Source: Candidatus Levybacteria bacterium GW2011_GWA1_37_16 (GTDB lineage: Bacteria > Patescibacteriota > Microgenomatia > Levybacterales > UBA12049). From it: 64,000 nucleotides of DNA. The translations under genes were made by a program, and so were the position numbers. The notes under the pieces were generated by a model that did not search any database, had not been told where the DNA came from, and saw nothing but the letters and a program-made list of their open reading frames with translations. Each line of letters starts with the position of its first letter. Position 1 is the stretch's first letter. Positions 5,490-64,000 of the stretch are shown here, in pieces. The DNA lies in assembly GCA_943357985.1 (NCBI GenBank), contig CALRGR010000002.1, positions 306-64,305 of the forward strand, read 5' to 3'.

Positions 5490-5938
5490 AGGTTTATTTA
5501 GCATCAGATCATGCAGGGCTCGAACTTAAAGATAAGATAAAGATTTATCTTGAAGGAGCAGAATATGAGGTAGTTGACTGTGGAGCTTTTGATTTTGATA
5601 AGGATGACGACTATCCAGATTTTATAACAGCCGCTGCAGAGAAAGTTTCCAAGGACGAAGGCTCTCTTGGAATTGTTTTGGGAAAATCAGGGGCAGGGGA
5701 GGCAATTGTTGCAAATAAAATAAAAGGCATCCGCGCAGTTTTAGGTTTTAATAGGGAAAATATTTTACTTGCAAGGACTCACAATGATGCAAATGTTTTG
5801 TCTTTGGGGTCTGCTTTTGTAAATGAGGAAGAGGCAAGAGAGTTGGTAAAGTTATTTTTAGAAACACCATTTTCGGGTGACGAAAGACACAAGAGAAGAA
5901 TAGAAAAGATTACCGAGCTAGAGCGAGTGTCATCCTGA
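5486..5938 (+). CDS. rpiB: Ribose-5-phosphate isomerase B (RpiB/LacAB family)
   Basis: MKVYLASDHAGLELK... is a typical RpiB N-terminus; ~150 aa. Confidence 0.85.
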   Translation: MKVYLASDHAGLELKDKIKIYLEGAEYEVVDCGAFDFDKDDDYPDFITAAAEKVSKDEGSLGIVLGKSGAGEAIVANKIKGIRAVLGFNRENILLARTHNDANVLSLGSAFVNEEEARELVKLFLETPFSGDERHKRRIEKITELERVSS

Positions 5939-5995
5939 GCAGAGCGAAGGATCCCATCGGTAACAAGAAGATTCTTCGTTGGCACTCAGAATGAC
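5929..5995. repeat. Imperfect inverted repeat (two inverted copies of the GTCATyCTGAGC..CGAAGrATC unit) that supplies the rpiB stop codon; candidate terminator
   Basis: GTCATCCTGAGCAGAGCGAAGGATC at 5929-5953 and GATTCTTCGTTGGCACTCAGAATGAC at 5970-5995. Confidence 0.6.
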
Positions 5996-6009
5996 ATTAA
6001 GAATTACTT

Positions 6010-6645
6010 ATGGAGATTATTCCCGGAATTTTAGAAAAAGATTGGTCTGAAATTGAAAAAAAGATAGAGCTTGTCCGTCCATTTGCAAATACTATTCATA
6101 TAGATATTATTGACGGCAAATTTGCTCCTAATACTACTTTTTTGGACCCGGCTCCTTTTAAAAAATATACAAGTCCTTCGGCGGGCTCAGGATTATTTTT
6201 TGAACTTCATATGATGGTAGAAGACCCGATTTCGTATCTGGATAAGTGGGCAGAGGCAGGTTTTGGGAGATTTTTAGGTCATATTGAGAAAATGACGGAT
6301 CAAGTAGAATTTGTTGCAAAAGCGCAGCTGCTCGGCGAGGTAGGGTTAGCAATAGACATGAAAACTCAGATAGAAGAAATAAAAGTGCCGTTTGAAGATT
6401 TAGATAGCATGCTTCTTATGTCTGTTAATGCCGGATTTTCAGGGCAAAAGTTTAACCCAGCGGTTATAGAAAAAATAAAAGAAGTCACGGACAAAACATT
6501 TATTCCAATTGAAGTTGACGGCGGAATAAACGATTCAAACATCTTTGATATTAAGCAAGCGGGAGTATTAAGCTGTGTTTCCACAGGTTTTATTTTTGGC
6601 GGAAACCCACAGGATCAATACAAGAAACTCCAAAGTTTATCTTAA
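6010..6645 (+). CDS. rpe: Ribulose-phosphate 3-epimerase
   Basis: IHIDIIDGKFAPN...LHMMVEDP...VDGGIN motifs. Confidence 0.85.
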   Translation: MEIIPGILEKDWSEIEKKIELVRPFANTIHIDIIDGKFAPNTTFLDPAPFKKYTSPSAGSGLFFELHMMVEDPISYLDKWAEAGFGRFLGHIEKMTDQVEFVAKAQLLGEVGLAIDMKTQIEEIKVPFEDLDSMLLMSVNAGFSGQKFNPAVIEKIKEVTDKTFIPIEVDGGINDSNIFDIKQAGVLSCVSTGFIFGGNPQDQYKKLQSLS

Positions 6646-8908: not shown

Positions 8909-11077
8909 TTAAGGTGTTGGCGTTGGAGTAGCTTGATCCGGATGAGCGCAATTTACGCAGTATGTTCCGCCTCCCGGTTCTGTCACTAGGACTGATTCTT
9001 TTTCCTCAACATCTTCTGTCTGTCCAGCCTTTGCGGGTGTATTTGTTTTTTTATCAATGAAAATCTTTTGATTTCCAAGATCAGTCATCTTAGGCTCCGT
9101 TCCTTTTATGAAGTATTCAAATCTTGTAGGACAGCCGCTGTTGCCGGGTAAAAGTCCTGATATTGAGCAAATAGCTTTTTGAACAATATTAAATGATTTT
9201 TGAAACGGTTCAGCAGTCTTTTTTTCCAGCATGTGCGCCATTAAGACGTGCCAAATAGGAGCTGCCCCTGTAATTCCTGATACAAGTCCGCTCATAGGTT
9301 TATTGTCATTATTGCCTACCCAGACAACCACAACGTAAGAAGGCGTATATCCGATTGTCCAGTTATCTCTATAGTCATTTGTTGTTCCTGTTTTTACTGC
9401 AACAGGTAAATTGCCAATTCTAAGTGGAGAGTTTGTTCCAAATGCCATAGCGCGGGCGTCATTATCAGATAAGATGCTTGAAATTATATATGAAACGCCT
9501 TCCGGCAAAGCCTTTTTACCAAATATTGGAGAAGTCAAAGGTTTATATTCTTCCAAGGTTTTTCCCTTACTATCGGTAACTTTAATAATGGGATGTAAGT
9601 CAATTCTGTATCCTCCGTTTGCAAAGACGCCATAAGCTGTTGCCATATCAAGCATGGTAACCTCTCCCCCTCCTAGTGTTAGAGAAAGACCATAGCGGCT
9701 AGGATTTGTGAAAGTTGAAATTCCCATAGCCGAAGCAGTTGAAATCATAGACTGAGTGCCATTTAGCTTAAGCATTTTTACAGCCGGAATATTTATGGAG
9801 TTTGCAAGGGCAAATCTCATTTGGATTACTCCGCGAAATTTTCCATCATAATTTACAGGACAATATGGAGGCTCTCCAATATTCGGATAGCAAATCTTCT
9901 CATCTATAAAAGGCGTTGCTGCCGTGTAATTGTGTATCAAGCCCACAGCGTAGTTAATTGGTTTTATGGAGGAACCTGGCTGTCTGTATGCCAGGGCGAT
10001 ATTCACGTTTCCGTCAATTGTTGGAGAAAAGTAATCCGTACTCCCAACCATAGCTAATATCTCGCCTGTTTTGGGACTTGTTATTACCGCGGCACCATTT
10101 GAAGCGTTATATCTTTTAAGACTTGTAACTTCTGCCGAAACTGAAGCCTGCGCGTACTCTTGAAGTATTAAGTCAAGACTGGTTGTCACTTTAAGTCCGC
10201 CTTCCTCAACTACTTTTTGTCCATATTTTTTAACAAGTAAGTCTTTAACATATAAAACAAAATGTGGAGCTTTAATATTATTTGATAATTTTTGGAAGTT
10301 GAGTTTCTCTTTTAAAGCTTTTTCTTGTTCATCACGGGTTATGTATCCCTGCTCATACATATTTCTAATAACTTCCTCTTGTCTTTGTTTTGCCAATTCC
10401 GGATGTGCTCCAAATGGAGAGTAGGTGGTTGGTGCTTCTGGGAGTCCTGCAAGAAGTGCGCTTTCTGCAATATCTAGTTCTTGTACATGTTTTCCGAAAT
10501 ACATTTGAGATGCTGCTTCAACTCCATAGGCAGTTCCTCCATAGGGAACTTGATTTAGATACATTTCCAGAATCTTGCTTTTGGAGTAAACTGCTTCGGT
10601 TGCAAAAGAAAGTATCACTTCTTTTATTTTTCTTGTTATGGTTCGCTCCGGTGTAAGAAGGCTTGTTTTAACCAATTGTTGAGTTAGCGTTGAACCCCCT
10701 TGAAGCTGTTTTTTAAAAACAATTGAATAAGCCGCCCTTGCAATTCCTTTTATATCTATTGCCCCATGCTGATAAAAACTTCTGTCTTCTATAGCAATTG
10801 TTGCTTTCTGCATATATTTGGGTATTGAGTTCAAAGAAACAAAACTCTGATTTTTGTTGGCATAAATTGCGTAAAGAAGTTTTCCGTTTCTGTCATAAAT
10901 CTGAGTGGATTGGGGAATAGAGGAGCTTGCCAGCCTTGTAGGCGAAGGGATATCTTTAAAAATAAAAAGTAAAAAAGTAGCGGCAAATAGAATACCAAAA
11001 ACTGCAGGAATAGAATATCTTTTTTTTCTTATGAGCCTCTTAAAAACTTTTTTAAGCCCTTTTATATCTAATTTCAT
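8909..11077 (-). CDS. Second class A PBP (PBP1a paralog), in tandem with the preceding one
   Basis: Same architecture (IEDRSFYQHGAID...GGSTLTQQL...KTGT); paralogous to the 6637..8817 gene. Confidence 0.85.
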   Translation of the reverse strand: MKLDIKGLKKVFKRLIRKKRYSIPAVFGILFAATFLLFIFKDIPSPTRLASSSIPQSTQIYDRNGKLLYAIYANKNQSFVSLNSIPKYMQKATIAIEDRSFYQHGAIDIKGIARAAYSIVFKKQLQGGSTLTQQLVKTSLLTPERTITRKIKEVILSFATEAVYSKSKILEMYLNQVPYGGTAYGVEAASQMYFGKHVQELDIAESALLAGLPEAPTTYSPFGAHPELAKQRQEEVIRNMYEQGYITRDEQEKALKEKLNFQKLSNNIKAPHFVLYVKDLLVKKYGQKVVEEGGLKVTTSLDLILQEYAQASVSAEVTSLKRYNASNGAAVITSPKTGEILAMVGSTDYFSPTIDGNVNIALAYRQPGSSIKPINYAVGLIHNYTAATPFIDEKICYPNIGEPPYCPVNYDGKFRGVIQMRFALANSINIPAVKMLKLNGTQSMISTASAMGISTFTNPSRYGLSLTLGGGEVTMLDMATAYGVFANGGYRIDLHPIIKVTDSKGKTLEEYKPLTSPIFGKKALPEGVSYIISSILSDNDARAMAFGTNSPLRIGNLPVAVKTGTTNDYRDNWTIGYTPSYVVVVWVGNNDNKPMSGLVSGITGAAPIWHVLMAHMLEKKTAEPFQKSFNIVQKAICSISGLLPGNSGCPTRFEYFIKGTEPKMTDLGNQKIFIDKKTNTPAKAGQTEDVEEKESVLVTEPGGGTYCVNCAHPDQATPTPTP

Positions 11078-11164
11078 ACTTCGGCAAGCTCAGCACAAGT
11101 ATCCTAATGATATCATTGAACCATTCCTATGACAATGATACTGTAAGTTTTATATAATAAAACC

Positions 11165-18908: not shown

Positions 18909-19169
18909 TTTCTTTCTTCTTTTGTGTCGGCAAAACCATTTCTTGTACTTTCGTTCCGGCGAAAGTACGCAAAGCCTCTCGCCAAGTCTAGCCCCGTGCT
19001 TTCTAAATCTCACTCATTCACTAAAAACGACGGACTTCGCCTTGCCCGTTTTTAGGGCGTTCATTTCATTCAATTTCTCATGCACTACGCTTCGAGTTGG
19101 CGATTTATGGATTCAACTATACGCTAAACGCTATTTTCTATACGCTAGTTGCTGTGTTATACTTTTCCT

Positions 19170-20189
19170 ATGATTAGGGTTGCAATAAACGGTTATGGAA
19201 GAATAGGAAGAGTAGCGCATAGAGTAATTCTTGAGAAATACACCTCGGAAATTGAAGTTGTTGCAATTAATGCGGGTTCATCTTCAGATATTAAAGGATG
19301 GTTAAATCTTTTAAAATATGACTCGGTTTATGGAATGCTCAGTGGCCACTCTTTGGAGGCCAAAAATGATGCTTTTGTCATAGACGGAAAAGAAATAAAA
19401 ATTTTCTCAGAAAAAGAGCCGACAAAACTTCCGTGGCAGGCACTAGATATAGATGTAGTTATTGAATCAACAGGTAAATTTATAACAGAAGATAAATTGC
19501 AGGCGCATTTAACAGCAGGCGCTAAGAAAGTAATACTTGCTACGCCTGCCAAGGGCGGAAATGTTTCTACCTTTGTAATATCCGTTAACGATAAAGATTA
19601 TAAGGGCGAGAATTTAATAAACAATGCATCTTGTACTACAAATTGCATAGCTCCCGTTGCTAAAATAATGGCTTCTTCTTTTGGCGTAGAGAAGGCAATG
19701 ATGACAACAATTCACGCCTATACTTCCGACCAAAGACTTCAAGACGGAGGACACAAAGATCCAAGAAGGGCCCGAGCAGCAGCGTTTAATATAGTTCCCA
19801 CTTCAACAGGCGCAACAACTGCGGCAGGACAGGTAGTGCCTGAGCTTTCCGGCATTTTTTCAGGGCTTTCAATTAGGGTTCCAGTGCCGGTTGGCTCACT
19901 TTCCGACTTTACGTTTCTTCTTAAAAAAGACACAACTGTAGAGGAAATAAACTCTATCTTTAAAAAGGAAGCGGAAAAACCGGAATACAAAGGAATACTT
20001 GAGGTAACAGAGGAGCCTATTGTAAGCTCCGATATTATTGGAAATCCGCACTCTGCAATAATTGACTTGTCTCTTACCCAGGTAGTTGGCGGTAATATGG
20101 TAAAAGTAATTGCTTGGTATGACAATGAGTACGGCTATGCAAATAGGCTTGTTGAACAAGCTATAATGGTGGGGGGAAGTAACTTGTGA
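19170..20189 (+). CDS. gap: Glyceraldehyde-3-phosphate dehydrogenase, type I
   Basis: MIRVAINGYGRIGR...SCTTNC. The start is placed at the ATG at 19170 because an extended -10 (TGtTATACT) lies 6 nt upstream. Confidence 0.9.
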   Translation: MIRVAINGYGRIGRVAHRVILEKYTSEIEVVAINAGSSSDIKGWLNLLKYDSVYGMLSGHSLEAKNDAFVIDGKEIKIFSEKEPTKLPWQALDIDVVIESTGKFITEDKLQAHLTAGAKKVILATPAKGGNVSTFVISVNDKDYKGENLINNASCTTNCIAPVAKIMASSFGVEKAMMTTIHAYTSDQRLQDGGHKDPRRARAAAFNIVPTSTGATTAAGQVVPELSGIFSGLSIRVPVPVGSLSDFTFLLKKDTTVEEINSIFKKEAEKPEYKGILEVTEEPIVSSDIIGNPHSAIIDLSLTQVVGGNMVKVIAWYDNEYGYANRLVEQAIMVGGSNL

Positions 20190-20758
20190 AGACAGGTATT
20201 AGAAACATTACAATCTCCGGAAGAATCGGCAGCGGACAAACAACCTTGGCCAAGAAACTCGCGGAAAAACTAAACTGGAAAATTCTTGAAGGAGGAGAGT
20301 TGTTTGAAAAAATACACAAAGAACTTAACCTGACGGAGCTTGAGGTAAATCAAAGACCGGACAATTTTGACATTGAGTTTGAAGAGAAAATAAAGAAAAT
20401 GCTCCGTGAGGAAGAAAACCACATAATACAAAGCCATCTTGTAGGATTTGATGCGCAGGGAATTGACGGAGTTTTTAAGATTCTTCTTGTTGTTGAAGAT
20501 GATGACGGTAAGGATAAAATAGATATTAGAATTGATAGGCTTGTAAATAGCCGCGGATTTTCAATTGAGCAAGCAAAGGAAGAGGCAGTTTTAAGAGAGG
20601 CAAGAAATCTTGATAAATGGAGAAGATTGTATGTGAATAATGATTCTGGCTGGGTTAATTGGGATAAGAAATACTACGATTTAGTAATTAATACTTATTC
20701 CCACAACGCCGATCAATCCCTCAAAATCGCCCTTGAGGCGCTAGGAGTTAAAAATTAA
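20186..20758 (+). CDS. P-loop nucleotide/nucleoside kinase (cytidylate-kinase-like family)
   Basis: Walker A motif ISGRIGSGQTTLAKKL; ATGA overlap with gap. Confidence 0.4.
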   Translation: MKTGIRNITISGRIGSGQTTLAKKLAEKLNWKILEGGELFEKIHKELNLTELEVNQRPDNFDIEFEEKIKKMLREEENHIIQSHLVGFDAQGIDGVFKILLVVEDDDGKDKIDIRIDRLVNSRGFSIEQAKEEAVLREARNLDKWRRLYVNNDSGWVNWDKKYYDLVINTYSHNADQSLKIALEALGVKN

Positions 20759-25588: not shown

Positions 25589-28032
25589 CAAGTGGAAAAA
25601 TAAATATGAAACTAGACGGAATAAGAGAAAAAGTATTTTTAGACAGGTACGCCTTGAAAGGCAAAGACGGGGAGCTTTTGGAGCATGAACCCGAAGAAAT
25701 GTGGAAGAGAGTAGCAAGGGGAATCGCAAAGAAAGAGAAAAAAGAAGTCCGCAAGCAGTGGGAAGACAAATTCTACAGCATTATGGAGGACTTCAAATTT
25801 GTTCCAGGCGGAAGAATCCTCTCGGGTGCAGGAACAGATTATCAGGTAACTTACTTTAACTGTTTTGTAATTCCCTCACCTAAAGATTCAAGAGAAGGAA
25901 TTCTTGACTCTTTAAAGCAATTGGTTGAAATTCAATCCCGTTCAGGTGGAGTAGGACTTAATCTCTCATCGCTACGGCCAAATGGGGCAAGAGTTAAAAA
26001 GGTAAATGGAACTTCATCTGGTCCTGTAACTTGGGCAGGACTTTTCTCCTACGCAACGCATGATGTTGTGCAACAGGGCGGAACCCGAAGAGGAGCAACG
26101 ATGATCATGCTTTGGGATTGGCATCCGGATATTGAGGAATTCATAACAGTTAAGCAGGATTTATCAAAAATTAATGGAGCAAATCTTTCAGTTTGTGTTT
26201 CGGATGACTTTATGCAAGCTGTAAAAGATGATGCAGATTGGAATTTAGTCTACCCGGATTTAGACGACCCGCGCTACGATTCTAAATGGAATGGAAACTT
26301 GGATGAGTGGAAGAAGATGGGAGGAAAAGTAAAAGTTTACAAAACCATAAAAGCAAGACAACTCTGGGATTTAATTTGTGAGGCAGCTTGGAAGTCTGCA
26401 GAGCCAGGTCTTCATTTCTTAGAGCGAAGCAACAAAAGAAGCAATACTTGGTATTTTGAGAAATTGATTGCAACAAATCCTTGCGGGGAGCAGCCTCTTG
26501 GTGGATGGGCAGTCTGTAATCTTGGAGCAATGAATTTATCTGCTTATGTAAGGCCTGCCTCGCTTGACGGCGGTCAAGGCGGGGATGAAGTATTTGATTT
26601 TGAAAACTTTGGAAAAGATGTAAAAGTAGCCATGAGATTTATGGATAATGTCATTGATTCAACCTATTATTTCTTTCCGGAGAATGAAAAATGCGCAAAG
26701 GACATAAGAAGAACCGGACTTGGAATAATGGGAATAGCGGATGCGCTTATTAAAATGAAGATCCGTTACGGGAGCGAAGAATCACTTCCTATTATTAGAA
26801 AGATTTTTGAGACACTCAGAAATAATTCTTATGAGGCATCAACAGAAGTTGCATCGGAAAAAGGCTCTTTTCCTAAATTTAACAAAGAAAAGTACCTTAA
26901 GGGATATCACATAAAAGCATTGCCAAAGTCTTTGAGAGATAAAATTGCAAAAAATGGAATAAGAAACGCGGTTTTACTTACAATTGCTCCAACGGGAACA
27001 ACAAGTCTCTTGGCAGGGGTTTCCTCTGGAATTGAGCCGGTTTACGAATTCACTTTCATAAGAAGGGACAGAACAGGGGAACATATGATGTATCATCCAC
27101 TATTTGAGCAGTGGAAAGAAGCAAATCCTGGAGCAGAAAGACCGGAATATTTTGTTTCGGCAAATGACTTAACTCCTCTTGAGCATACGATAGTTCAGGC
27201 AGCAGCTCAAGAATATATTGATTCTTCTATTTCAAAAACAGTAAATGCTCCAAATTCTCACACAATTGATGATGTTAAAACTCTTTACATGTCGGCATAT
27301 GACTTAGGTCTTAAAGGAGTAACTTACATGAGGGACGGTTCAAGAGAAGGAGTATTATCCAGAGTTGGGGATGCTTCGGCAAGCTCAGCACAAGCTAAAA
27401 AAGAAGAAGTTGTACCAAAAAAAGTAGCCCAAAGTAGGCCAATGATTCTTGAAGGATACACTTATCAGCTTGAAACACCAGTTGGAAGAACCTACGTAAC
27501 AATCAATCATAATGAAAATAGAGAACCGCTTGAAGTCTTTATAACTATTGGAAAGTCTGGATCCGATGTTGAGGCAATGGCAAATGCGTTGGGACGTATG
27601 ATTTCGTTATCTCTTAGGCTTGAAAGTGATGTAGCCCCCCGCGAAAAGGTAAGAAAAATAGTTGCACAGCTTTCAGGAATTGGTGGAGCAAGAAGCGTTG
27701 GATTTGGAAAAGACAGAGTTAGATCACTTCCTGATGCTTTGGCCAAAGTTTTGGCAAATCATCACGGGTTTGCAGTAAACGGACACGTTGAAGACAAGCC
27801 GGGATTTGTTTTTAACGGACACCAAAACAATCAGCAAAAAGTAGAAGAGACACCGGTACTGGTTGAAAATGTTATAATTTCTCCTCTTCCAATGATTGAA
27901 CCCGTACATGAATCTTTTGCGGAGGCTTCTACAACAGGACTTTTTGATATTTGTCCTGAGTGTGGAAGTGGAACTTTTGCATACGAAGAAGGCTGCCGCA
28001 AATGTTATGGCTGCGGATACGCCGAATGCTAG
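25585..28032 (+). CDS. nrdJ: Adenosylcobalamin-dependent ribonucleotide reductase (class II, NrdJ) with a C-terminal Zn ribbon
   Basis: Class II RNR motifs (..NPCGEQPL.., ..TVNAP..) and a C-terminal CPECG...CYGCG motif; follows nrdR. Confidence 0.85.
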   Translation: MTSGKINMKLDGIREKVFLDRYALKGKDGELLEHEPEEMWKRVARGIAKKEKKEVRKQWEDKFYSIMEDFKFVPGGRILSGAGTDYQVTYFNCFVIPSPKDSREGILDSLKQLVEIQSRSGGVGLNLSSLRPNGARVKKVNGTSSGPVTWAGLFSYATHDVVQQGGTRRGATMIMLWDWHPDIEEFITVKQDLSKINGANLSVCVSDDFMQAVKDDADWNLVYPDLDDPRYDSKWNGNLDEWKKMGGKVKVYKTIKARQLWDLICEAAWKSAEPGLHFLERSNKRSNTWYFEKLIATNPCGEQPLGGWAVCNLGAMNLSAYVRPASLDGGQGGDEVFDFENFGKDVKVAMRFMDNVIDSTYYFFPENEKCAKDIRRTGLGIMGIADALIKMKIRYGSEESLPIIRKIFETLRNNSYEASTEVASEKGSFPKFNKEKYLKGYHIKALPKSLRDKIAKNGIRNAVLLTIAPTGTTSLLAGVSSGIEPVYEFTFIRRDRTGEHMMYHPLFEQWKEANPGAERPEYFVSANDLTPLEHTIVQAAAQEYIDSSISKTVNAPNSHTIDDVKTLYMSAYDLGLKGVTYMRDGSREGVLSRVGDASASSAQAKKEEVVPKKVAQSRPMILEGYTYQLETPVGRTYVTINHNENREPLEVFITIGKSGSDVEAMANALGRMISLSLRLESDVAPREKVRKIVAQLSGIGGARSVGFGKDRVRSLPDALAKVLANHHGFAVNGHVEDKPGFVFNGHQNNQQKVEETPVLVENVIISPLPMIEPVHESFAEASTTGLFDICPECGSGTFAYEEGCRKCYGCGYAEC

Positions 28033-32754: not shown

Positions 32755-32826
32755 GGGTGCGTAGCTCAGTGGTAGAGCGCTACTCTTATAAAGTAGATGT
32801 CCTTGGTCCGATCCCAAGCGCACCCA
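32755..32826 (+). tRNA. tRNA-Ile (anticodon UAU)
   Basis: Hand-folded cloverleaf. Acceptor GGGTGCG/CGCACCC, D-arm GCTC-AGTGGTA-GAGC, anticodon stem CTACT/AGTAG with loop CTTATAA, T-arm CTTGG-TCCGATC-CCAAG, discriminator A. Confidence 0.7.
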
Positions 32827-32828
32827 CA

Positions 32829-34043
32829 ATGATTTTTGTCCCCAGATTTATTAAAACCTCTGCCCTTAAGTTAACGCGTGATAGAGGATACGTCCTCAAT
32901 AAATTTTTGCTGCATACTTTTCCCAAAGGTTATCCACAAGTACAAACTGTAATTATCTTGAAAAACAAACCGGAGAAAGATGATGTAAATATTTCAAGAA
33001 GGCTTTTGAAAGCATATAAGCTGGCAAAAGCTACTGATGAAGTTAAAAAGCCTGTCTTGCTCGTCTCGCTGCGAAGCGGGCCTGCAGGCAGGGAGAAGGA
33101 TATTTGGACAGATTTAGCTATGTCTGACCATAGAGAATTTATAGAAGTTTTGGAAAGTGATGATCCAAAACTTCTTGCCAATTATTTATTTGGTGTTCAC
33201 GCAAGAGGAATTTCTCAGGGACTTGTGCAGGGGGAAAAAGAATATGAAAAAATCCGTGCCTCTCAAATTTTTAGAAGGTTTTTAGGAGTTAATACTAAAG
33301 ATAAGCTTATATCTTTAGCAGAATATTTGGGAGTTTTGTCTTATGAGAATCCGGAACAGGGAAGAAATGGCGAAAACATTTACAAGAATGTAAATAAAAT
33401 AGTTTCTGAAATTGAGAAAAAACTTGGTTTTGAAATTACAACTGCAGATTTTGAAAACGCTCTTTTGAAGCTGAAACTTAAAAAAGGCTCGATTCATATA
33501 CGTGATATTTATGCACTTTATACAGCTTTTCGTTTGGCCGAAATAGCAGGCAAAAAAGCAAAGGTGGCAGAAATTGGCGGAGGAGTTGGAAAAGCAGCTT
33601 ACTATGCTTACAAATTAGGAATTGCCGATTACAGCATTTTTGATTTGCCATATATAAATGTTTTGCAAGGATATTTTTTACTTAAAACCTTACCTATTGG
33701 TTCGATTTCTCTTTTTGGGGAAAAAGAAAAAGCTATAAAGATTTTGCCGGACTTTGAATTCTCAAAAGTGGCAAAAAACAGGTTTGATATAGCTTTAAAT
33801 TCTGATTCTTTCCCAGAGATAAATAAAAAGATAGTTAAGAAATATCTATCTGATATTAAAAAGAATACGAAGAAATATTTACTAAGCATAAATCAAGAAG
33901 GGGAGAGTAGCTTTGCCGCCATAAAACAATCTGTTGTCGGCAAAATCATTTCTGAAATTGGTGGATTTAAGAGAGAATACAGGTTTCCATTTTGGGTAAG
34001 AAAAGGTTATATTGAAGAGCTTTATAGTATAATTAAAGTATGA
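32829..34043 (+). CDS. Hypothetical protein, possibly a Rossmann-fold methyltransferase (AEIGGGVGKAAYYA); start uncertain because the ORF track starts it inside the tRNA
   Basis: ORF track; glycine-rich Rossmann-like motif. Confidence 0.35.
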   Translation: MIFVPRFIKTSALKLTRDRGYVLNKFLLHTFPKGYPQVQTVIILKNKPEKDDVNISRRLLKAYKLAKATDEVKKPVLLVSLRSGPAGREKDIWTDLAMSDHREFIEVLESDDPKLLANYLFGVHARGISQGLVQGEKEYEKIRASQIFRRFLGVNTKDKLISLAEYLGVLSYENPEQGRNGENIYKNVNKIVSEIEKKLGFEITTADFENALLKLKLKKGSIHIRDIYALYTAFRLAEIAGKKAKVAEIGGGVGKAAYYAYKLGIADYSIFDLPYINVLQGYFLLKTLPIGSISLFGEKEKAIKILPDFEFSKVAKNRFDIALNSDSFPEINKKIVKKYLSDIKKNTKKYLLSINQEGESSFAAIKQSVVGKIISEIGGFKREYRFPFWVRKGYIEELYSIIKV

Positions 34044-35597: not shown

Positions 35598-35712
35598 AGT
35601 TCGATATATCAATCTTCGATTTCGCTCAGCATCCTGAGCTTGCCGAAGGATAAACAATATCCTATAATATCAAGAATGAAGCTAATAGTCAAGAAGCATT
35701 TATAAAAGGCTT

Positions 35713-36054
35713 ATGAAAAGAATTATATTCGCAATTTTAGTTTTCAGCTTAAGCTTAGTAATCGTTGGTCTTGCCCGTTCAATATATGACCTTTGGAAAA
35801 AGCAAGATTTGGTTATTTCTTATCAAAAACAGCTTGTAAAACAGAAAAATGAGAATCAGACACTAAAACAAAAGCTTTCATTAACAAATAACCCTAAATT
35901 TGTAGAACAGCAGGCAAGAGACAATCTTTTCCTGTCAAAACCGGGGGAACAGAATATACTTATTCCCAGCGGGCTTCTTATAAGTAGTAGTTCCGCAAGG
36001 CCTATAGAAGACCTAATTCCAAATTGGAAGAAATGGTGGAACCTGTTTTTCTAG
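35713..36054 (+). CDS. Septum formation initiator (FtsB/DivIC family)
   Basis: N-terminal TM helix, coiled-coil, then FVEQQARDNLFLSKPGEQNILIP, a DivIC-like motif. Confidence 0.6.
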   Translation: MKRIIFAILVFSLSLVIVGLARSIYDLWKKQDLVISYQKQLVKQKNENQTLKQKLSLTNNPKFVEQQARDNLFLSKPGEQNILIPSGLLISSSSARPIEDLIPNWKKWWNLFF

Positions 36055-36296
36055 AATTTCAAATTTAAAACTTTTATTTTCTTAGTCTTATCCCAGCCCT
36101 TAATTTGGCTTTCTCTTTTTAAAGCTTCAGATTGGGAACTAAGCTCCTCTAGGTAAACTTTCTTAATAGGTTTATGAGATCTTGTGTATCTTCCACCCTT
36201 GCCGTTTTTATGGTCGGAAAATCTTCTGTCTGGATTGTTCGAGGAGCCAGTATAAAGACTTCCGTCTGAACACAAAAGTATATAAACAAACCACAT
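36051..36296 (-). CDS. GIY-YIG (URI-domain) nuclease, UPF0213-like; start taken at MWFVYILLC
   Basis: FVYILLCSDGSLYTGSSNNPDRRFSDHKNG...YTRSHKP is the GIY-YIG motif. Confidence 0.7.
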   Translation of the reverse strand: MWFVYILLCSDGSLYTGSSNNPDRRFSDHKNGKGGRYTRSHKPIKKVYLEELSSQSEALKRESQIKGWDKTKKIKVLNLKF

Positions 36297-36742
36297 AGAA
36301 AAGTGCTTGCACTGAACTGAGCGAAGCAATGAAATCGCACTTGCCCTTCGACGCGATTTTCGCATGTGCTCAAGTCTTGCTCAGGACACTTCATCTGTGC
36401 TTCGCCCAGCTGAAGTGTTGCGGGGCTGGGAGTTGGACCCAGCCTACAAGATTATGCAATCTGTTTCTCCGGTTACCCAGAGTGTCGGACTATATCATCA
36501 TCCTTGATAAATCTAGGATGTTCAGCGTATAGTCTCTACGGGGTCAATCTCGATTAAATCGGGACGACTTCCCTCGGTATTGCCCTTTGTCTAGGGTTTC
36601 ACCGATATAGCTAAATTCTCTTTTATACGTTGCCGTATAAAGGGCCCATTTTTGAGCCTCGTGTGCACCGTACACTACCCCGCGCGTTTGAACATTATAC
36701 AATTTGATTTAAGGCTCGTCAACCTGATAAAATAGGTGGCAA

Positions 36743-36815
36743 GCCAGGGTAGCTCAGTGGTTAGAGCACAAGATTCATATCCTTGCGGTCGTGGGTTCAA
36801 CTCCCACCCCTGGTA
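36743..36815 (+). tRNA. tRNA with anticodon CAU (elongator Met; an Ile2/lysidine type cannot be excluded)
   Basis: Hand-folded. Acceptor GCCAGGG/CCCTGGT with G1-U72, D-arm GCTC-AGTGGTTA-GAGC, anticodon loop TTCATAT, T-arm GTGGG-TTCAACT-CCCAC. Confidence 0.7.
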
Positions 36816-36821
36816 CTTTTT

Positions 36822-44241: not shown

Positions 44242-45402
44242 ATGAAAATTGCAATTGTTCACGATTACATAAAAGAGTACGGTGGCGCTGAACGAGTTCT
44301 GGAAGAGTTAATTAAGTTATATCCTAAAGCAACTGTATATACAACGGTATATTTGCCTAAATATTTAGGACCTCATAGGCAAAGGTTTAGTGAATACAAA
44401 ATTAGAACATCTTTCTTGCAATATCTTCCTTTTAAAGCCAAATTAATTTCGCCTTTTAGACTCTTATCTCCTTTAGCTTTTAAGCTTTTCAACTTCTCGG
44501 ATTTTGATTTAATAATTACATCTCAAACCGGTGCATACTTCCCAAATATCCTAGATAAGGAAAAAGCCGTGCTTATCTCTTACACCCACACGCCTCCAAG
44601 ATATCTATATGGGTTTGCAACAGCAAGGGAGTGGAAGAAAAACCCTGTTTTGAGATTTTTAGGAGAGCTTGCTAACCATTTCCTGCGTCTTTTAGATTAT
44701 AAAGCCGCACAAAATGTAGATTATTTTATAGCAAATTCAAAAAATGTAGCAGGAAGAATTAAAAAGTTCTATAGACGTGATGCTGTTGTAATTTATCCTC
44801 CGGTGGGTGTTCAGGAATCAGGAATAGGGAATAAGGAATCAAGAAAAAAAATTCATAATTCAAAATTCATAATTCCTAATTCATATTATCTGGCAGGAGG
44901 TAGGCTTGCACGGCCAAAACATATAGAGCTTATTGTTATGACTTTTACAAAATTAAGAATTCCTTTAAAAATCTTTGGTAAGGAATTTGCGGGATACGGT
45001 GATTCTCTTAGACGCATTGCCGGTAAAAACGTGGATTTTTTAGGTGAAATATCAGACGAGGAAAAGCTCGATCTAATGAAAAACGCCAAAGCATATATTT
45101 TTGCGGCAGAGGATGAGGATTTTGGGATTACTCCAGTTGAAGCAATGATGGTTGGCACTCCTGTTATAGCTTACAAGTCAGGGGGAGTTATAGAGACCGT
45201 AGTAGACCCTTCGGCAGGCTCAGGGCAAGTGGCGACAGGTGTATTTTTTGATAGGCTTTCCGCGGGACCGCTTACCATGGCACTTAATAAATTTAAAACA
45301 ATAGATTTTGATAAAAATGCTATCATAAAACATGCCAAAAAGTTTTCCGCGGAAAACTTTGATAGGGAATTGAAGAAGTTTATTTCTAAAGTGACTAAAT
45401 GA
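44242..45402 (+). CDS. Glycosyltransferase family 4 (GT-B, 'group 1')
   Basis: C-terminal EDFGITPVEAMMVGTPVIAYKSGG motif. Confidence 0.75.
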   Translation: MKIAIVHDYIKEYGGAERVLEELIKLYPKATVYTTVYLPKYLGPHRQRFSEYKIRTSFLQYLPFKAKLISPFRLLSPLAFKLFNFSDFDLIITSQTGAYFPNILDKEKAVLISYTHTPPRYLYGFATAREWKKNPVLRFLGELANHFLRLLDYKAAQNVDYFIANSKNVAGRIKKFYRRDAVVIYPPVGVQESGIGNKESRKKIHNSKFIIPNSYYLAGGRLARPKHIELIVMTFTKLRIPLKIFGKEFAGYGDSLRRIAGKNVDFLGEISDEEKLDLMKNAKAYIFAAEDEDFGITPVEAMMVGTPVIAYKSGGVIETVVDPSAGSGQVATGVFFDRLSAGPLTMALNKFKTIDFDKNAIIKHAKKFSAENFDRELKKFISKVTK

Positions 45403-47263: not shown

Positions 47264-47410
47264 ATGCCAGAGTTACCAGAAGTAGACCCATTCGGCTTCG
47301 CTCAGGGCAAGAACATTGAGAATCGGCAGCCGCGGTACCTACTTTTGTCCCAATTGTCAGAAATAAATCTATTGTATTTTTATAACCCCTATGCTACTAT
47401 CCTATTCTAG
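47264..47410 (+). pseudogene. Decayed remnant of formamidopyrimidine-DNA glycosylase (Fpg/Nei): MPELPEVD...RYLLL retained, the rest lost
   Basis: Leaderless ATG 6 nt after a TATAAT at 47253-58. It encodes MPELPEVD (the Fpg N-terminus with catalytic Pro2/Glu3), then a repeat-derived linker, then RQPRYLLLSQL (compare the Fpg RAKYLLLEL motif), then a stop. Confidence 0.4.
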
Positions 47411-47513
47411 CACCCTCTTTTGCTGAAGCTTCAGTTGGCGAGGCCAAGTGCTAGTTTTTTATGCCCATTCGCAGTCGAAAACTGCTCAGGACATAATAAG
47501 TTATAATTGAATT

Positions 47514-55028: not shown

Positions 55029-55658
55029 ATGAAATTAATAGTGGGGCTTGGTAATCCGGGAGAGAAATACGCAAAAACACGTCATAACTTGGGGTTTATG
55101 ATTGTTGATCAGTTTTTGAAAGATTTTGAGCCTCAAAAAGATACCGTTTGGAATGATAGTAAAAAATTCAAAAGTGATATTGCCCAGATAGAATGGCACC
55201 GCCGTTCGGCAGGTTCGTCAAGCTCACTGCGAGCAAGCTCAGGCCAAGCAATCATGGAAAAAGTTATTCTTGTTAAGCCTAAAACCTACATGAATAACTC
55301 CGGCATGGCTGTTTCTCTTATTTCAAAGTTTTATAAAATTAAACCTGAAGATATTTGGATTGTCCATGACGATATAGATTTTCAAGTTGGAAATTTAAAA
55401 ATCAGATTTGGTGGAGGAGACGCAGGGCACAATGGAGTTGCGTCAGTTACAAAGAGTCTTGGTACGGATAAATTTTGGAGAGTAAGGCTTGGAATTGAAT
55501 TTGGGGAAAAGATTGTTGTGGAAGATTTTGTTTTGCGAAATTTTTCGCCCAAAGAGAAGGGGAAAGTTAAAAAAGTTATAAAAAATGCATCAGATGCTTT
55601 GCAAGAAGTTTTAGAAAATGGAACAGACGTTGCAATGAACAAATTTAATACAAGGTGA
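55029..55658 (+). CDS. pth: Peptidyl-tRNA hydrolase, with a ~19-aa Ser/Ala-rich in-frame insertion
   Basis: MKLIVGLGNPGEKYAKTRHNLGF...HDDIDF...GHNG; extra segment HRRSAGSSSSLRASSGQA relative to E. coli Pth. Confidence 0.85.
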   Translation: MKLIVGLGNPGEKYAKTRHNLGFMIVDQFLKDFEPQKDTVWNDSKKFKSDIAQIEWHRRSAGSSSSLRASSGQAIMEKVILVKPKTYMNNSGMAVSLISKFYKIKPEDIWIVHDDIDFQVGNLKIRFGGGDAGHNGVASVTKSLGTDKFWRVRLGIEFGEKIVVEDFVLRNFSPKEKGKVKKVIKNASDALQEVLENGTDVAMNKFNTR

Positions 55659-55685
55659 CCCATTCGACTAATCCTCAGGGTCATA

Positions 55686-55985
55686 GTGAGTGAAATCGAA
55701 TCTATGAAGACGGTTAAACAAATTCTAGAAAACTTTTCGCCTGTTGAGGATAAATATATTTCCCGTGAATTTCAGTCCTTTGGTATCTATTTGGCAGAAC
55801 AGCTTGATGATTATAAGCATAGAGCGCTTTTTATAAAATTGGCAAAGACTGTTCATCGTTCAATTTTAGAAAAAGCTCTTTCTTTTGCCGTAGACAGCAA
55901 TGCAAGAAATAAAGGTGCACTTTTCATGTGGAAGCTTAAGGAATTTAAAGAGGTGGTAAAAGGCAAACAAAATGTTAAAAAATAA
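55686..55985 (+). CDS. Hypothetical protein
   Basis: ORF track only. Confidence 0.3.
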   Translation: MSEIESMKTVKQILENFSPVEDKYISREFQSFGIYLAEQLDDYKHRALFIKLAKTVHRSILEKALSFAVDSNARNKGALFMWKLKEFKEVVKGKQNVKK

Positions 55986-56493: not shown

Positions 56494-56551
56494 CACATTC
56501 GATACATTCGATAAAGCTCAGGGTCTTCGTCACCAAGTCAGACTTGGCTCC

Positions 56552-62901: not shown

Positions 62902-62974
62902 GGGCCCGAAGTTTACCCGGTTGAACGCCTCGTTTGCAACGAGGAGGTAGGGAGTTCGACTCTCCTCGGGTCCA
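62902..62974 (+). tRNA. tRNA-Ala (anticodon UGC)
   Basis: Hand-folded. Acceptor GGGCCCG/CGGGTCC with the G3-U70 Ala identity pair, D-arm GTTT-ACCCGGTT-GAAC, anticodon loop TTTGCAA, T-arm GGGAG-TTCGACT-CTCCT. Confidence 0.85.
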
Positions 62975-63271
62975 CCCAGATAGGGAATAGGGATTAGCGT
63001 ATAGGGTATAGTTTCTTGACGCTTTGAGTTTAGAATTTACTAAACGCTAAACGCTAGCAACTAAAACCTAATTTTAGTCATTGCTTTTTGGTCTTCGTTA
63101 CGCAAGTTCTGCGTCAAGACCAGAAAATAGTGACTAAGTCTTAAATTAGCTCTTTAACAAGCGAAGAGAAGAAATGTAAGCCTACGTTCACTGGGGTGAA
63201 CGTAGCATAGTAAGTAATTACCTACTAAATTGTACGTCTGGATTAATAGGATTCAGGGAGCGATTTAATAG

Positions 63272-64000
<729 letters not shown>

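Follow-up and report, generated by a model that had tools for sequence, protein, structure and literature searches.

Does a hairpin repeat of little more than twenty nucleotides move among bacterial genomes, and is a small GIY-YIG nuclease gene lying next to a cluster of its copies the enzyme that moves it? The question is raised by contig CALRGR010000002.1, of which we analysed a stretch of 64,000 nt (hereafter the window; ~38% GC) that the names of the homologues of its Pth and GIY-YIG proteins put in the Levybacteria/Microgenomates, within the candidate phyla radiation (CPR). A first-pass annotation of the window had proposed that the repeat is a small mobile or recombinogenic palindromic element, similar to repetitive extragenic palindromes (REPs) or MITEs, the miniature transposable elements with inverted repeats. 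This proposal is borne out by copies that differ between related genomes in nrdJ, in a glycosyltransferase gene and in pth. As to the enzyme, we consider it fairly probable, arguing by analogy, that the repeat belongs to a system resembling that of the REPs and the REP-associated tyrosine transposases (RAYTs), with the GIY-YIG nuclease as the partner.

The motif was far above chance level in the window: TTCG-N3-7-GCTCAG matched nine times vs 0.33 expected (the largest count in any shuffle was 2), CTGAGC-N4-CGAAG with at most one mismatch seven times vs 0.58, and a looser one-mismatch pattern 14 times vs 1.8. All the sites named in the first-pass annotation carry the motif or a recognisable remnant of it, and its figure of ten or more sites rose to a total of 14-16 copies or remnants; its list stood, except that two clear copies had been overlooked, at 6172-6194 in rpe and at 45205-45227 in a GT4 glycosyltransferase gene. 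The 21-mer that had been described as identical at 11078 and 27374 is CTTCGGCAAGCTCAGCACAAG, with the same letters at 11079-11099 and 27374-27394 and 0 expected. The consensus given at the time, GTCATyCTGAGC...CGAAGrATC, describes one subfamily only and not the general unit, which reads NN-CTGAGC-N4-CGAAG-N'N' on the strand here called the GA strand and has a core of 19-24 nt. A covariance model was trained on copies from the window and from other genomes and was run on the window without filters. It returned six matches at E < 0.01, at 45205-45227(-), 35630-35652(+), 27370-27392(-), 11075-11097(-), 6172-6194(-) and 5931-5953(+), and gave E 0.69 for 5970-5993(-); for the copies with 5-6-base loops (35615, 47291, 55663, 56507), and for those that are nested or degenerate (36297-36416, 47470, 55203-55252), identification was by pattern search and reading by eye only. 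The Rfam covariance models found nothing at the repeat sites, neither above the gathering threshold nor with E relaxed to 10, in searches of the whole window, the GIY-YIG region and the 5900-6010 doublet. The copies occur as singlets, as inverted doublets (5931-5993, 35615-35652, 55656-55703), in a nested arrangement (55203-55252) and in one mosaic (36297-36416), and about 12 of the 15 point the same way.

That the repeat is a hairpin family with a conserved apex and covarying closing pairs is evident from 108 distinct copies, taken from the CPR (window included) and from other phyla and picked solely by the 11 invariant bases. The two stem-closing pairs vary freely among them (CG 44, GC 31 and UA 20 at one; CG 45, GC 35 and AU 16 at the other), the covariation score was matched by 0 of 500 shuffles, and controls in which the partner was slid by 1-3 columns scored far lower. 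In a separate test on non-CPR copies, the flank positions were paired in 96% and 92% of cases vs about 45% after shuffling. By inspection, the conserved part could extend the helix through C-G, U-A, tandem G.A/A.G and G-C pairs, leaving a loop of 3-5 bases. Folding, which had been suggested as a check of the hairpins, supported them for the inverted doublets (z about -2.5) and not for single copies, for which nearest-neighbour folding was no better than that of shuffled sequence; support for the single hairpin therefore comes from covariation and not from folding energy.

The repeats come and go between related genomes. Whether occupied and empty orthologous sites can be told apart was a test set beforehand, and at three genes they can. 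In nrdJ the linker copy at 27373-27396 on the minus strand (30.2 bits in the covariance model), which the first-pass annotation had rightly placed inside the gene, is an exact in-frame insertion of the 24 nt GCTTCGGCAAGCTCAGCACAAGCT, encoding ASASSAQA, between GAT and AAAAAA. The orthologue on L121, a syntenic contig of a related genome (GCA_900218215.1) that we compared codon by codon, is empty and reads GAT|AAAAAA. At nrdJ 26554-26583 there is a second insertion of ten residues, PASLDGGQGG (CCTGCCTCGCTTGACGGCGGTCAAGGCGGG), also absent in L121, which may be a decayed repeat copy. The copy in the GT4 glycosyltransferase gene (45205-45227, minus strand, in frame as PSAGSGQ), the best match of the covariance model (31.5 bits, E 7e-6), is a net gain of 21 nt in the window where L121 reads GAC AAA AAA ACT. 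The L121 glycosyltransferase (18956-20230) has two insertions of its own, of 18 and 27 residues, without counterpart in the window, and one of these is a short tandem GAGAGTT-type repeat.

The third gene, pth, displays three states. Of 35 aligned Pth proteins of the Levybacteria type, 10 are empty (QPKHGK) and most have a single copy (RRSAGSGQA). The gene in the window contains, as had been claimed for 55203-55252 (minus strand), copies within its reading frame, namely two nested ones (RRSAG-SSSSLRAS-SGQA); compared at the DNA level with an empty relative (L125) and one with the single copy (L126), it has a further 24 nt (GGTTCGTCAAGCTCACTGCGAGCA) in the loop of the older copy. The 16.7-kb L125 contig, from a close relative, contains no strict copy at all. 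The intergenic copy at 56499-56530 is missing in both L125 and L126, where the flanking genes abut. Most copies stay clear of genes (101 of 118 distinct copies from CPR loci lie outside long open reading frames, ORFs), and the genuine in-gene CPR copies are nearly all read in the frame xTCG-GCx-xGC-TCA, giving Ser/Ala/Gly. This one shared frame suggests that only harmless insertions survive within genes.

The candidate partner is the single GIY-YIG gene of the window (36051-36296, minus strand), which encodes a protein of 81 aa of the UPF0213/bacterial Slx1-like family (Pfam PF01541, E 1e-21; PDB structures 1zg2, E 2.8e-14, and 1ywl, E 8.1e-14). UPF0213 proteins are widespread, have no known function and include E. 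coli YhbQ. The window protein is a minimal GIY-YIG domain like BH0048 and EF2693, with the conserved Tyr, Arg, His and Glu, and retains all the family-invariant residues (Y5, C9, Y15, G17, R25, H29, E62). A word-indexed search returned 722 homologues, the best 120 of which are 69-100% identical to it, and the intron-endonuclease model TIGR01453 gave 16.7 bits vs a cut-off of 56. Gene order on the minus strand is a near-consensus sigma-70-like promoter (TTGACG, 17 nt, TATAAT at 36722-36694), a tRNA-fMet-like tRNA(CAU) with an intron (36684-36417; exons 36684-36655 and 36456-36417), a 120-nt leader of repeat modules and the nuclease gene. The tRNA has a C1xA72 mismatch and an unusual T-loop, TCCAACT, and ARAGORN calls it as tRNA-Met only once the exons are joined in silico. 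Its intron (36654-36457) is a group I intron of 198 nt that splits the tRNA after position 33 (Rfam, 84.6 bits) and is found in some related CPR loci and not in others, for example not in L131. We considered the nuclease as intron-encoded and ruled this out, because its gene lies outside the intron, about 120 nt past the tRNA 3' end, and because in relatives the same gene follows a tRNA that has no intron, 27 nt away. Between window and L121, the block of tRNA-Met, tRNA-fMet and GIY-YIG gene (36051-36816 and 9790-10246, respectively) is inverted as a unit relative to the flanking divIC and recombinase genes.

Copies upstream of the nuclease gene had been placed at 36337-36420, and they proved to be part of a mosaic leader that runs on the minus strand from the tRNA-fMet 3' end to the GIY-YIG start codon (36297-36416). 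Read from the sequence, it consists of degenerate and nested copies: a CACTTCA...TGAAGTG hairpin, TCCTGAGC-[27 nt]-CGAAGGG and TTGCTTCGCTCAGTTCAGTGCAAGCAC. The arrangement recurs among 80 metagenomic CPR loci (L127-L206), found with the bare GIY-YIG domain as query. The proteins of these loci are 65-81% identical to that of the window, a conservation like that of core housekeeping proteins. The nuclease gene adjoins tRNA-fMet in 63 of them, 47 with the gene co-oriented downstream and 16 divergent; the former have homologous leaders of 27-268 nt made of varying hairpin modules, and the latter have no repeats between gene and tRNA. Leaders of some CPR loci combine a stem formed over a long range, a hairpin with a T-run that resembles a terminator, and another hairpin immediately ahead of the ATG.

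The vicinity of the GIY-YIG gene, called suggestive in the first-pass annotation, turned into a strong, oriented association of the repeat with UPF0213 GIY-YIG genes in the CPR and in other phyla, the motif being 25-45 times denser beside the gene than elsewhere across 80 CPR and 80 other loci. In the CPR loci the 200 nt upstream of the start codon held 4.67 copies per kb vs about 0.15 per kb elsewhere, and 43 of 73 loci had a copy within 230 nt. Broad GIY-YIG alignments were too diverse for finding loci, and a single protein (for metagenomes) or a tight alignment (for genomes) was used instead. The 80 non-CPR genome loci thus came from a tight Bacteroidota-type UPF0213 alignment; among their organisms are Bacteroidota, Verrucomicrobiota, Nitrospirota, Cyanobacteria, several Proteobacteria, Planctomycetota, Chloroflexota and Ignavibacteria. 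Here the 200 nt on either side of the gene held 5.6-8.3 copies per kb, vs 0.19 beyond 1 kb and 0.21 inside the gene, and 72 of 76 loci had a copy at most 300 nt away, vs 7.4% of random windows. The outermost copies are placed like terminal inverted repeats (TIRs), TTCG-oriented upstream in 36 of 52 cases and GA-oriented downstream in 45 of 65. As the non-CPR query carried repeat-encoded ends, we repeated the analysis on the 50 loci in which the match was confined to the domain; the enrichment persisted (47 of 50 with a copy; 6.0 vs 0.23 per kb). The genomes of these loci also have dispersed copies far from the gene (48 vs 10.8 expected, and 38 vs 9.2). In a Nostocaceae locus (L247, Aliinostoc), too, the motif stands beside the GIY-YIG gene.

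In the gene of the type I restriction helicase HsdR, a unit consisting of a TTCG-oriented copy, a GIY-YIG domain and a GA-oriented copy lies in frame inside the ORF, the repeats encoding the linkers of the domain. The ORFs that contain it are full-length, about 920-1050 aa, and read TIFQTFM / ASAGSAT ... PEPVEG / YFGEYPPDFF across it. The site was seen in loci L207-L216 and in the proteins P0391-P0510, and the unit occurs in Nitrospirota, Betaproteobacteria, Anaerolineae, Verrucomicrobiota and Bacteroidota; at its left junction, L212 carries STGSATGA five times in tandem. Homologues with 74-84% identity across the junction region are mostly empty (TIFQTFMSGPPKDGKPSPYFGEY), and two of them, P0400 (TIFQTFM-ASAGSATEGSVTELVEG-YFGDY) and P0411, have the hairpin pair alone at this place. 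At this site, then, the empty state, the hairpin pair and the hairpin pair with GIY-YIG all exist. A study of 2006 had already remarked on an HsdR insertion of this kind; it asked whether Slx1-like domains might be molecular parasites and did not mention the repeats (PMC1564403).

The same apex occurs across many bacterial phyla, and it is also found in viral contigs. A scan with TCCTGAGC-N4-CGAAGGA detected it in viral contigs, at least 120 in number, whose GC contents span 32-73%, with 131 copies among the matches listed. The loop is CTGT, TTGT, GAAG or GCAG in 78 of these 131 (CTGT 33, TTGT 19, GAAG 14), and GTCA precedes 34 of them. Many viral copies have long, perfectly paired outer stems that are unrelated between copies with identical apices, and inverted doublets were found in other contigs too. 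Behind gene ends, viral copies have the GA strand on the sense side in 14 cases of 17. High-GC DNA has long ORFs in every frame, and 88% of random points in these contigs fall inside one.

How might nuclease and hairpin work together? In the mechanism that we propose, the structure-specific GIY-YIG nuclease would recognise the hairpin, in which U-A, tandem G.A and G-C pairs can stack on one strand. A nick or cut made there would lead to repair-coupled copying of hairpin-bounded DNA to new places. The favoured targets would be the loops of existing hairpins, as the nested copies and the identical apices on unrelated palindromic stems suggest. The dispersed copies of 21-24 nt would be non-autonomous derivatives, the nuclease would be the mobilising enzyme, and the Levybacteria-like nuclease gene, in its single conserved locus beside tRNA-fMet, may be comparable to a domesticated RAYT. 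A much wider claim can be made only tentatively: that UPF0213 proteins are the partner enzymes of pan-bacterial hairpin mini-elements of ~20-25 nt, a second, independently evolved REP/RAYT-type system across CPR, Bacteroidota, Cyanobacteria (possibly including the small dispersed repeats, SDRs), Verrucomicrobiota, Nitrospirota and others, which would insert into hairpin loops and in frame and so write Ser/Ala/Gly linkers, and even a whole nuclease domain, into proteins. We found no literature that links UPF0213 GIY-YIG genes to hairpin repeats or contains the motif strings, most subscription journals lying outside the search.

Several observations weigh against a partnership of repeat and nuclease. 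The comparisons at nrdJ, the glycosyltransferase, Pth and HsdR revealed neither a target-site duplication nor a clean, constant insertion boundary, and in three of these four neighbouring bases were also replaced; such replacement of local sequence agrees with events of the repair type at least as well as with transposition, or better. The poor folding of single copies counts on the same side, as does the background chosen for the CPR leaders: relative to other intergenic DNA instead of all DNA, the upstream enrichment is perhaps just ~3-5 fold. The CPR nuclease is 65-86% identical across lineages and fixed beside tRNA-fMet, so that it has the look of a housekeeping gene, the leader of which might be a regulatory RNA or a plain insertion hot spot. 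The HsdR cassette may descend from one insertion spread by gene transfer. Within ~5 kb of the 131 copies in the 120 listed viral contigs, tblastn and the family hidden Markov model (HMM) found no UPF0213 nuclease; the link is visible only from the side of the gene. We also know of no enzymology on record for UPF0213.

The rival explanations, among them a role in processing, scars of cassettes and a different enzyme, accordingly keep real weight. The hairpins might be RNA or DNA signals useful to the host, in processing, stabilisation or termination, on which the GIY-YIG nuclease acts in normal nucleic-acid metabolism, for instance by cutting apart the transcript of tRNA-fMet and the mRNA behind it; the spread of the hairpins would then be a by-product and the nuclease no mobilising enzyme. 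The high conservation of the CPR gene and its linkage to tRNA-fMet in 63 of 80 loci fit such a role, and so do the leaders with their long-range stem, their terminator-like hairpin and T-run and their pre-ATG hairpin, the sense-strand position of the GA strand after viral gene ends (14 of 17) and the several window copies right behind stop codons; an RNA role was proposed for the Slx1-like family from a fusion to TrmH (PMC1564403). We nevertheless judge it rather unlikely. It leaves the insertion polymorphism unexplained, including that of copies in coding regions; the mRNA of most window copies has the weaker TTCG strand and not the GA strand; the doublets have no T-run behind them; the gene is flanked by copies in both orientations; and the three HsdR states resemble a mobile cassette and its derivative. 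Those same alleles could also be taken to mean that the scattered hairpins are scars or solo ends of a whole GIY-YIG cassette, inserted in the manner of a homing endonuclease and later deprived of its interior, and not units that move by themselves, given that in P0400 the end hairpins stand alone at the exact cassette junctions and that the cassette ends are inverted copies of the motif. This we hold to be unlikely, as the CPR nuclease stays in its conserved context beside tRNA-fMet (63 of 80) and yet about 15 copies occur in this window alone, two of which share an identical 21-mer, and as nested 24-nt units within loops are hard to derive from repeated gain and loss of a cassette of ~400 nt.

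Another enzyme might move the hairpins, for example a RAYT-type or IS200-type Y1/HUH transposase or a function encoded by phages; the GIY-YIG gene would then be no more than a preferred site of insertion, or would hitch-hike and use the hairpins as flexible linkers. REPs and the IS200/IS605 elements do act through single-stranded hairpins with a strand bias, which the common orientation of ~12 of 15 window copies recalls, and many of the copies come from viral contigs that lack the nuclease. On the other hand, no Y1/HUH gene was present beside any copy examined, the bracketed gene being GIY-YIG; the GTAG/CGTC tags typical of REPs are absent; and the nuclease is associated with the repeat in very different phyla in TIR-like orientation. 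We regard this explanation as quite improbable. Chance, or a by-product of composition or codon usage, might be invoked for so short a core, and we estimate that a collection scan with 15 fixed bases would give about 100 chance matches. The window counts (9 vs 0.33 and 14 vs 1.8), the non-random loops and flanks of the viral copies, the covariation and the sharp positional enrichment beside one gene family leave it next to no credibility.

Compared with known systems, a nuclease-partnered repeat would most resemble REPs, their doublets (REPINs) and RAYTs: both consist of short, imperfect, mostly extragenic palindromes in many copies, as singlets, inverted doublets and mosaics like bacterial interspersed mosaic elements (BIMEs), and both have one nuclease-type gene bracketed by repeats, in the CPR at a single, vertically conserved locus. 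They differ in that the bracketed gene here encodes a GIY-YIG domain (PF01541) and not a Y1 HUH transposase, that there is no GTAG/CGTC tag (the flank consensus of non-CPR copies is GT[GC][GC] before CTGAGC), that the unit is smaller, that its apex is common to phyla and not lineage-specific, and that in-frame copies in genes are tolerated. The motif strings do not appear in PMC3733652. From MITEs, which the hairpin-pair-only HsdR allele P0400 resembles by sharing junctions and inverted ends with the GIY-YIG cassette, the repeats are set apart by far smaller units, the lack of a target-site duplication and the lack of a recognised transposase. The palindromic elements of Rickettsia also lie in frame in protein genes, where they encode tolerated peptide segments, as the copies in nrdJ, the glycosyltransferase gene and pth do here; they are confined to Rickettsiales and measure ~100-150 bp, and units of 21-24 nt are several-fold smaller. 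We are aware of no enzyme associated with them, nor of one for the SDRs of Nostocaceae.

As described, the SDRs resemble our repeat in unit size (21-24 nt here) and in insertion inside palindromes or hairpin loops. They are modules of 21-27 nt regarded as mobile, and SDR5 is reported to insert precisely inside the palindrome HIP1 (PMC4390886, PMC5861425); SDRs have been reported in Nostocaceae only (PMC5861425). No statement linking SDRs to GIY-YIG genes was found in the literature searched. The GIY-YIG homing endonucleases (I-TevI, Seg) resemble the present nuclease in their catalytic domain, in the selfish-cassette behaviour seen in HsdR and in the position beside tRNA genes, T4 SegB being located among tRNA genes (PMC2330249). 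In contrast to them, the nuclease here is an 81-aa catalytic core only, without DNA-binding domains, it is bracketed by hairpin repeats, and its gene in the window lies outside the group I intron; UPF0213 has been placed in the Slx1-like branch, not in that of homing endonucleases and UvrC (PMC1564403). Intrinsic terminators, finally, differ by their T-run, which is missing after the window doublets and follows a hairpin only in some CPR leaders. By reading, with no terminator-scanning tool run, we saw no T-run after 5995, 35652, 55703 or 56530.

The remaining window copies complete this picture site by site. At 5931-5953 on the plus strand lies a GA-oriented copy, CATCCTGAGCAGAGCGAAGGATC (20 bits, E 0.0078), the left half of a REPIN-like doublet, whose inverted partner at 5970-5993 on the minus strand has a 6-base loop and T/A stem variants (12.6 bits, E 0.69). 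The pair had been described as a long hairpin that supplies the rpiB stop codon, and both points hold: 5925-6000 folds as DNA at -11.1 kcal/mol (z -2.45), and the ORF translation ends at the TGA of CCTGAGC, 5936-5938. The copy in rpe (ribulose-phosphate 3-epimerase; Pfam Ribul_P_3_epim) at 6172-6194 on the minus strand is in frame as PSAGSG (25.2 bits, E 3e-4); it is not demonstrable as an insertion, because the length of the protein is not above that of solved PDB homologues. The intergenic copy at 11075-11097 on the minus strand (26.4 bits, E 1.5e-4), which carries the 21-mer shared with the nrdJ copy, does lie beside the PBP start codon, with a gap of one base where it had been said to abut directly. 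At 35615-35652 a tight inverted doublet, TTCG-oriented at 35615-35629 and GA-oriented at 35630-35652 (30.8 bits for the latter), stands between the starts of the recombinase gene and divIC and folds at -8 kcal/mol (z -2.65); the equivalent spacer of L121 has three copies too. As had been recognised, it creates a false N-terminus on the recombinase ORF, with 20 spurious residues, the form with a Met start having 286 aa in the window as in L121.

Motif or remnant is likewise present at both sites assigned to the fpg remnant region. A minus-strand copy with a 5-base loop at 47285-47311, known from a pattern match and the sequence, comes straight after the MPELPEVD start of the remnant (ATG at 47264), and a degenerate minus-strand copy at 47470-47492 with an enlarged loop (TTCG-12 nt-GCTCAGG), the weakest member of the family, was recognised from sequence only and has no covariance-model match. 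The fpg/mutM remnant itself (47264-47513) has the canonical MPELPEV start, followed at once by the repeat copy, and no intact ORF; it is flanked by a gene for an MFS transporter and by one of the amino-acid-kinase family that is probably pyrH. The copies reported at 55662 and 56499 are indeed intergenic. The spacer after pth (55656-55703) combines a TTCG-oriented copy with a 6-bp stem TGACCC/GGGTCA at 55656-55683, found by pattern match, with a degenerate GA-oriented copy, ATAG-TGAGTGAAATCGAAT-CTAT at ~55680-55702, which overlaps it by a few bases. The post-pth spacers of L125 (6713-6773) and L126 (2477-2537) have a different hairpin with a 12-bp stem (ATCCTGCACTTT...AAAGTGCAGGAT). The copy at 56499-56530 (minus strand, 5-base loop, pattern match) follows a gene for a VTT-domain protein and is preceded by a partial duplication (ACATTCGATACATTCGATAAAGCTCAGGG).

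Two further features of the window concern its RNA genes. A tRNA-Ile at 32755-32827 has the anticodon UAU, uncommon in bacteria, and the mechanically called ORF at 32757-34043 overlaps it, so that the true start of this ORF is further downstream. At the end of the window (62902-64000), the 23S rRNA begins at 63290 with tRNA-Ala(UGC) before it; there is no 16S gene in the preceding ~2 kb, as protein-coding ORFs lie directly upstream of the 23S/tRNA-Ala genes, and the rRNA genes thus appear unlinked.

The repeats account for the many peptide extensions that are spurious, and for the odd inserts rich in Ser/Ala/Gly, that annotated proteins of the CPR and of other bacteria show, and the motif is a practical marker of false gene starts and of indel hot spots. 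Even streamlined genomes of ~1 Mb tolerate a mobile repeat that remodels the loops of their proteins. If the link with the nuclease is causal, it would provide the first function for a very widespread family of small nucleases and a second partnership of repeat and enzyme beside REP/RAYT, built on another nuclease fold, and the nuclease may be the missing enzyme of the very small mobile repeats of cyanobacteria.

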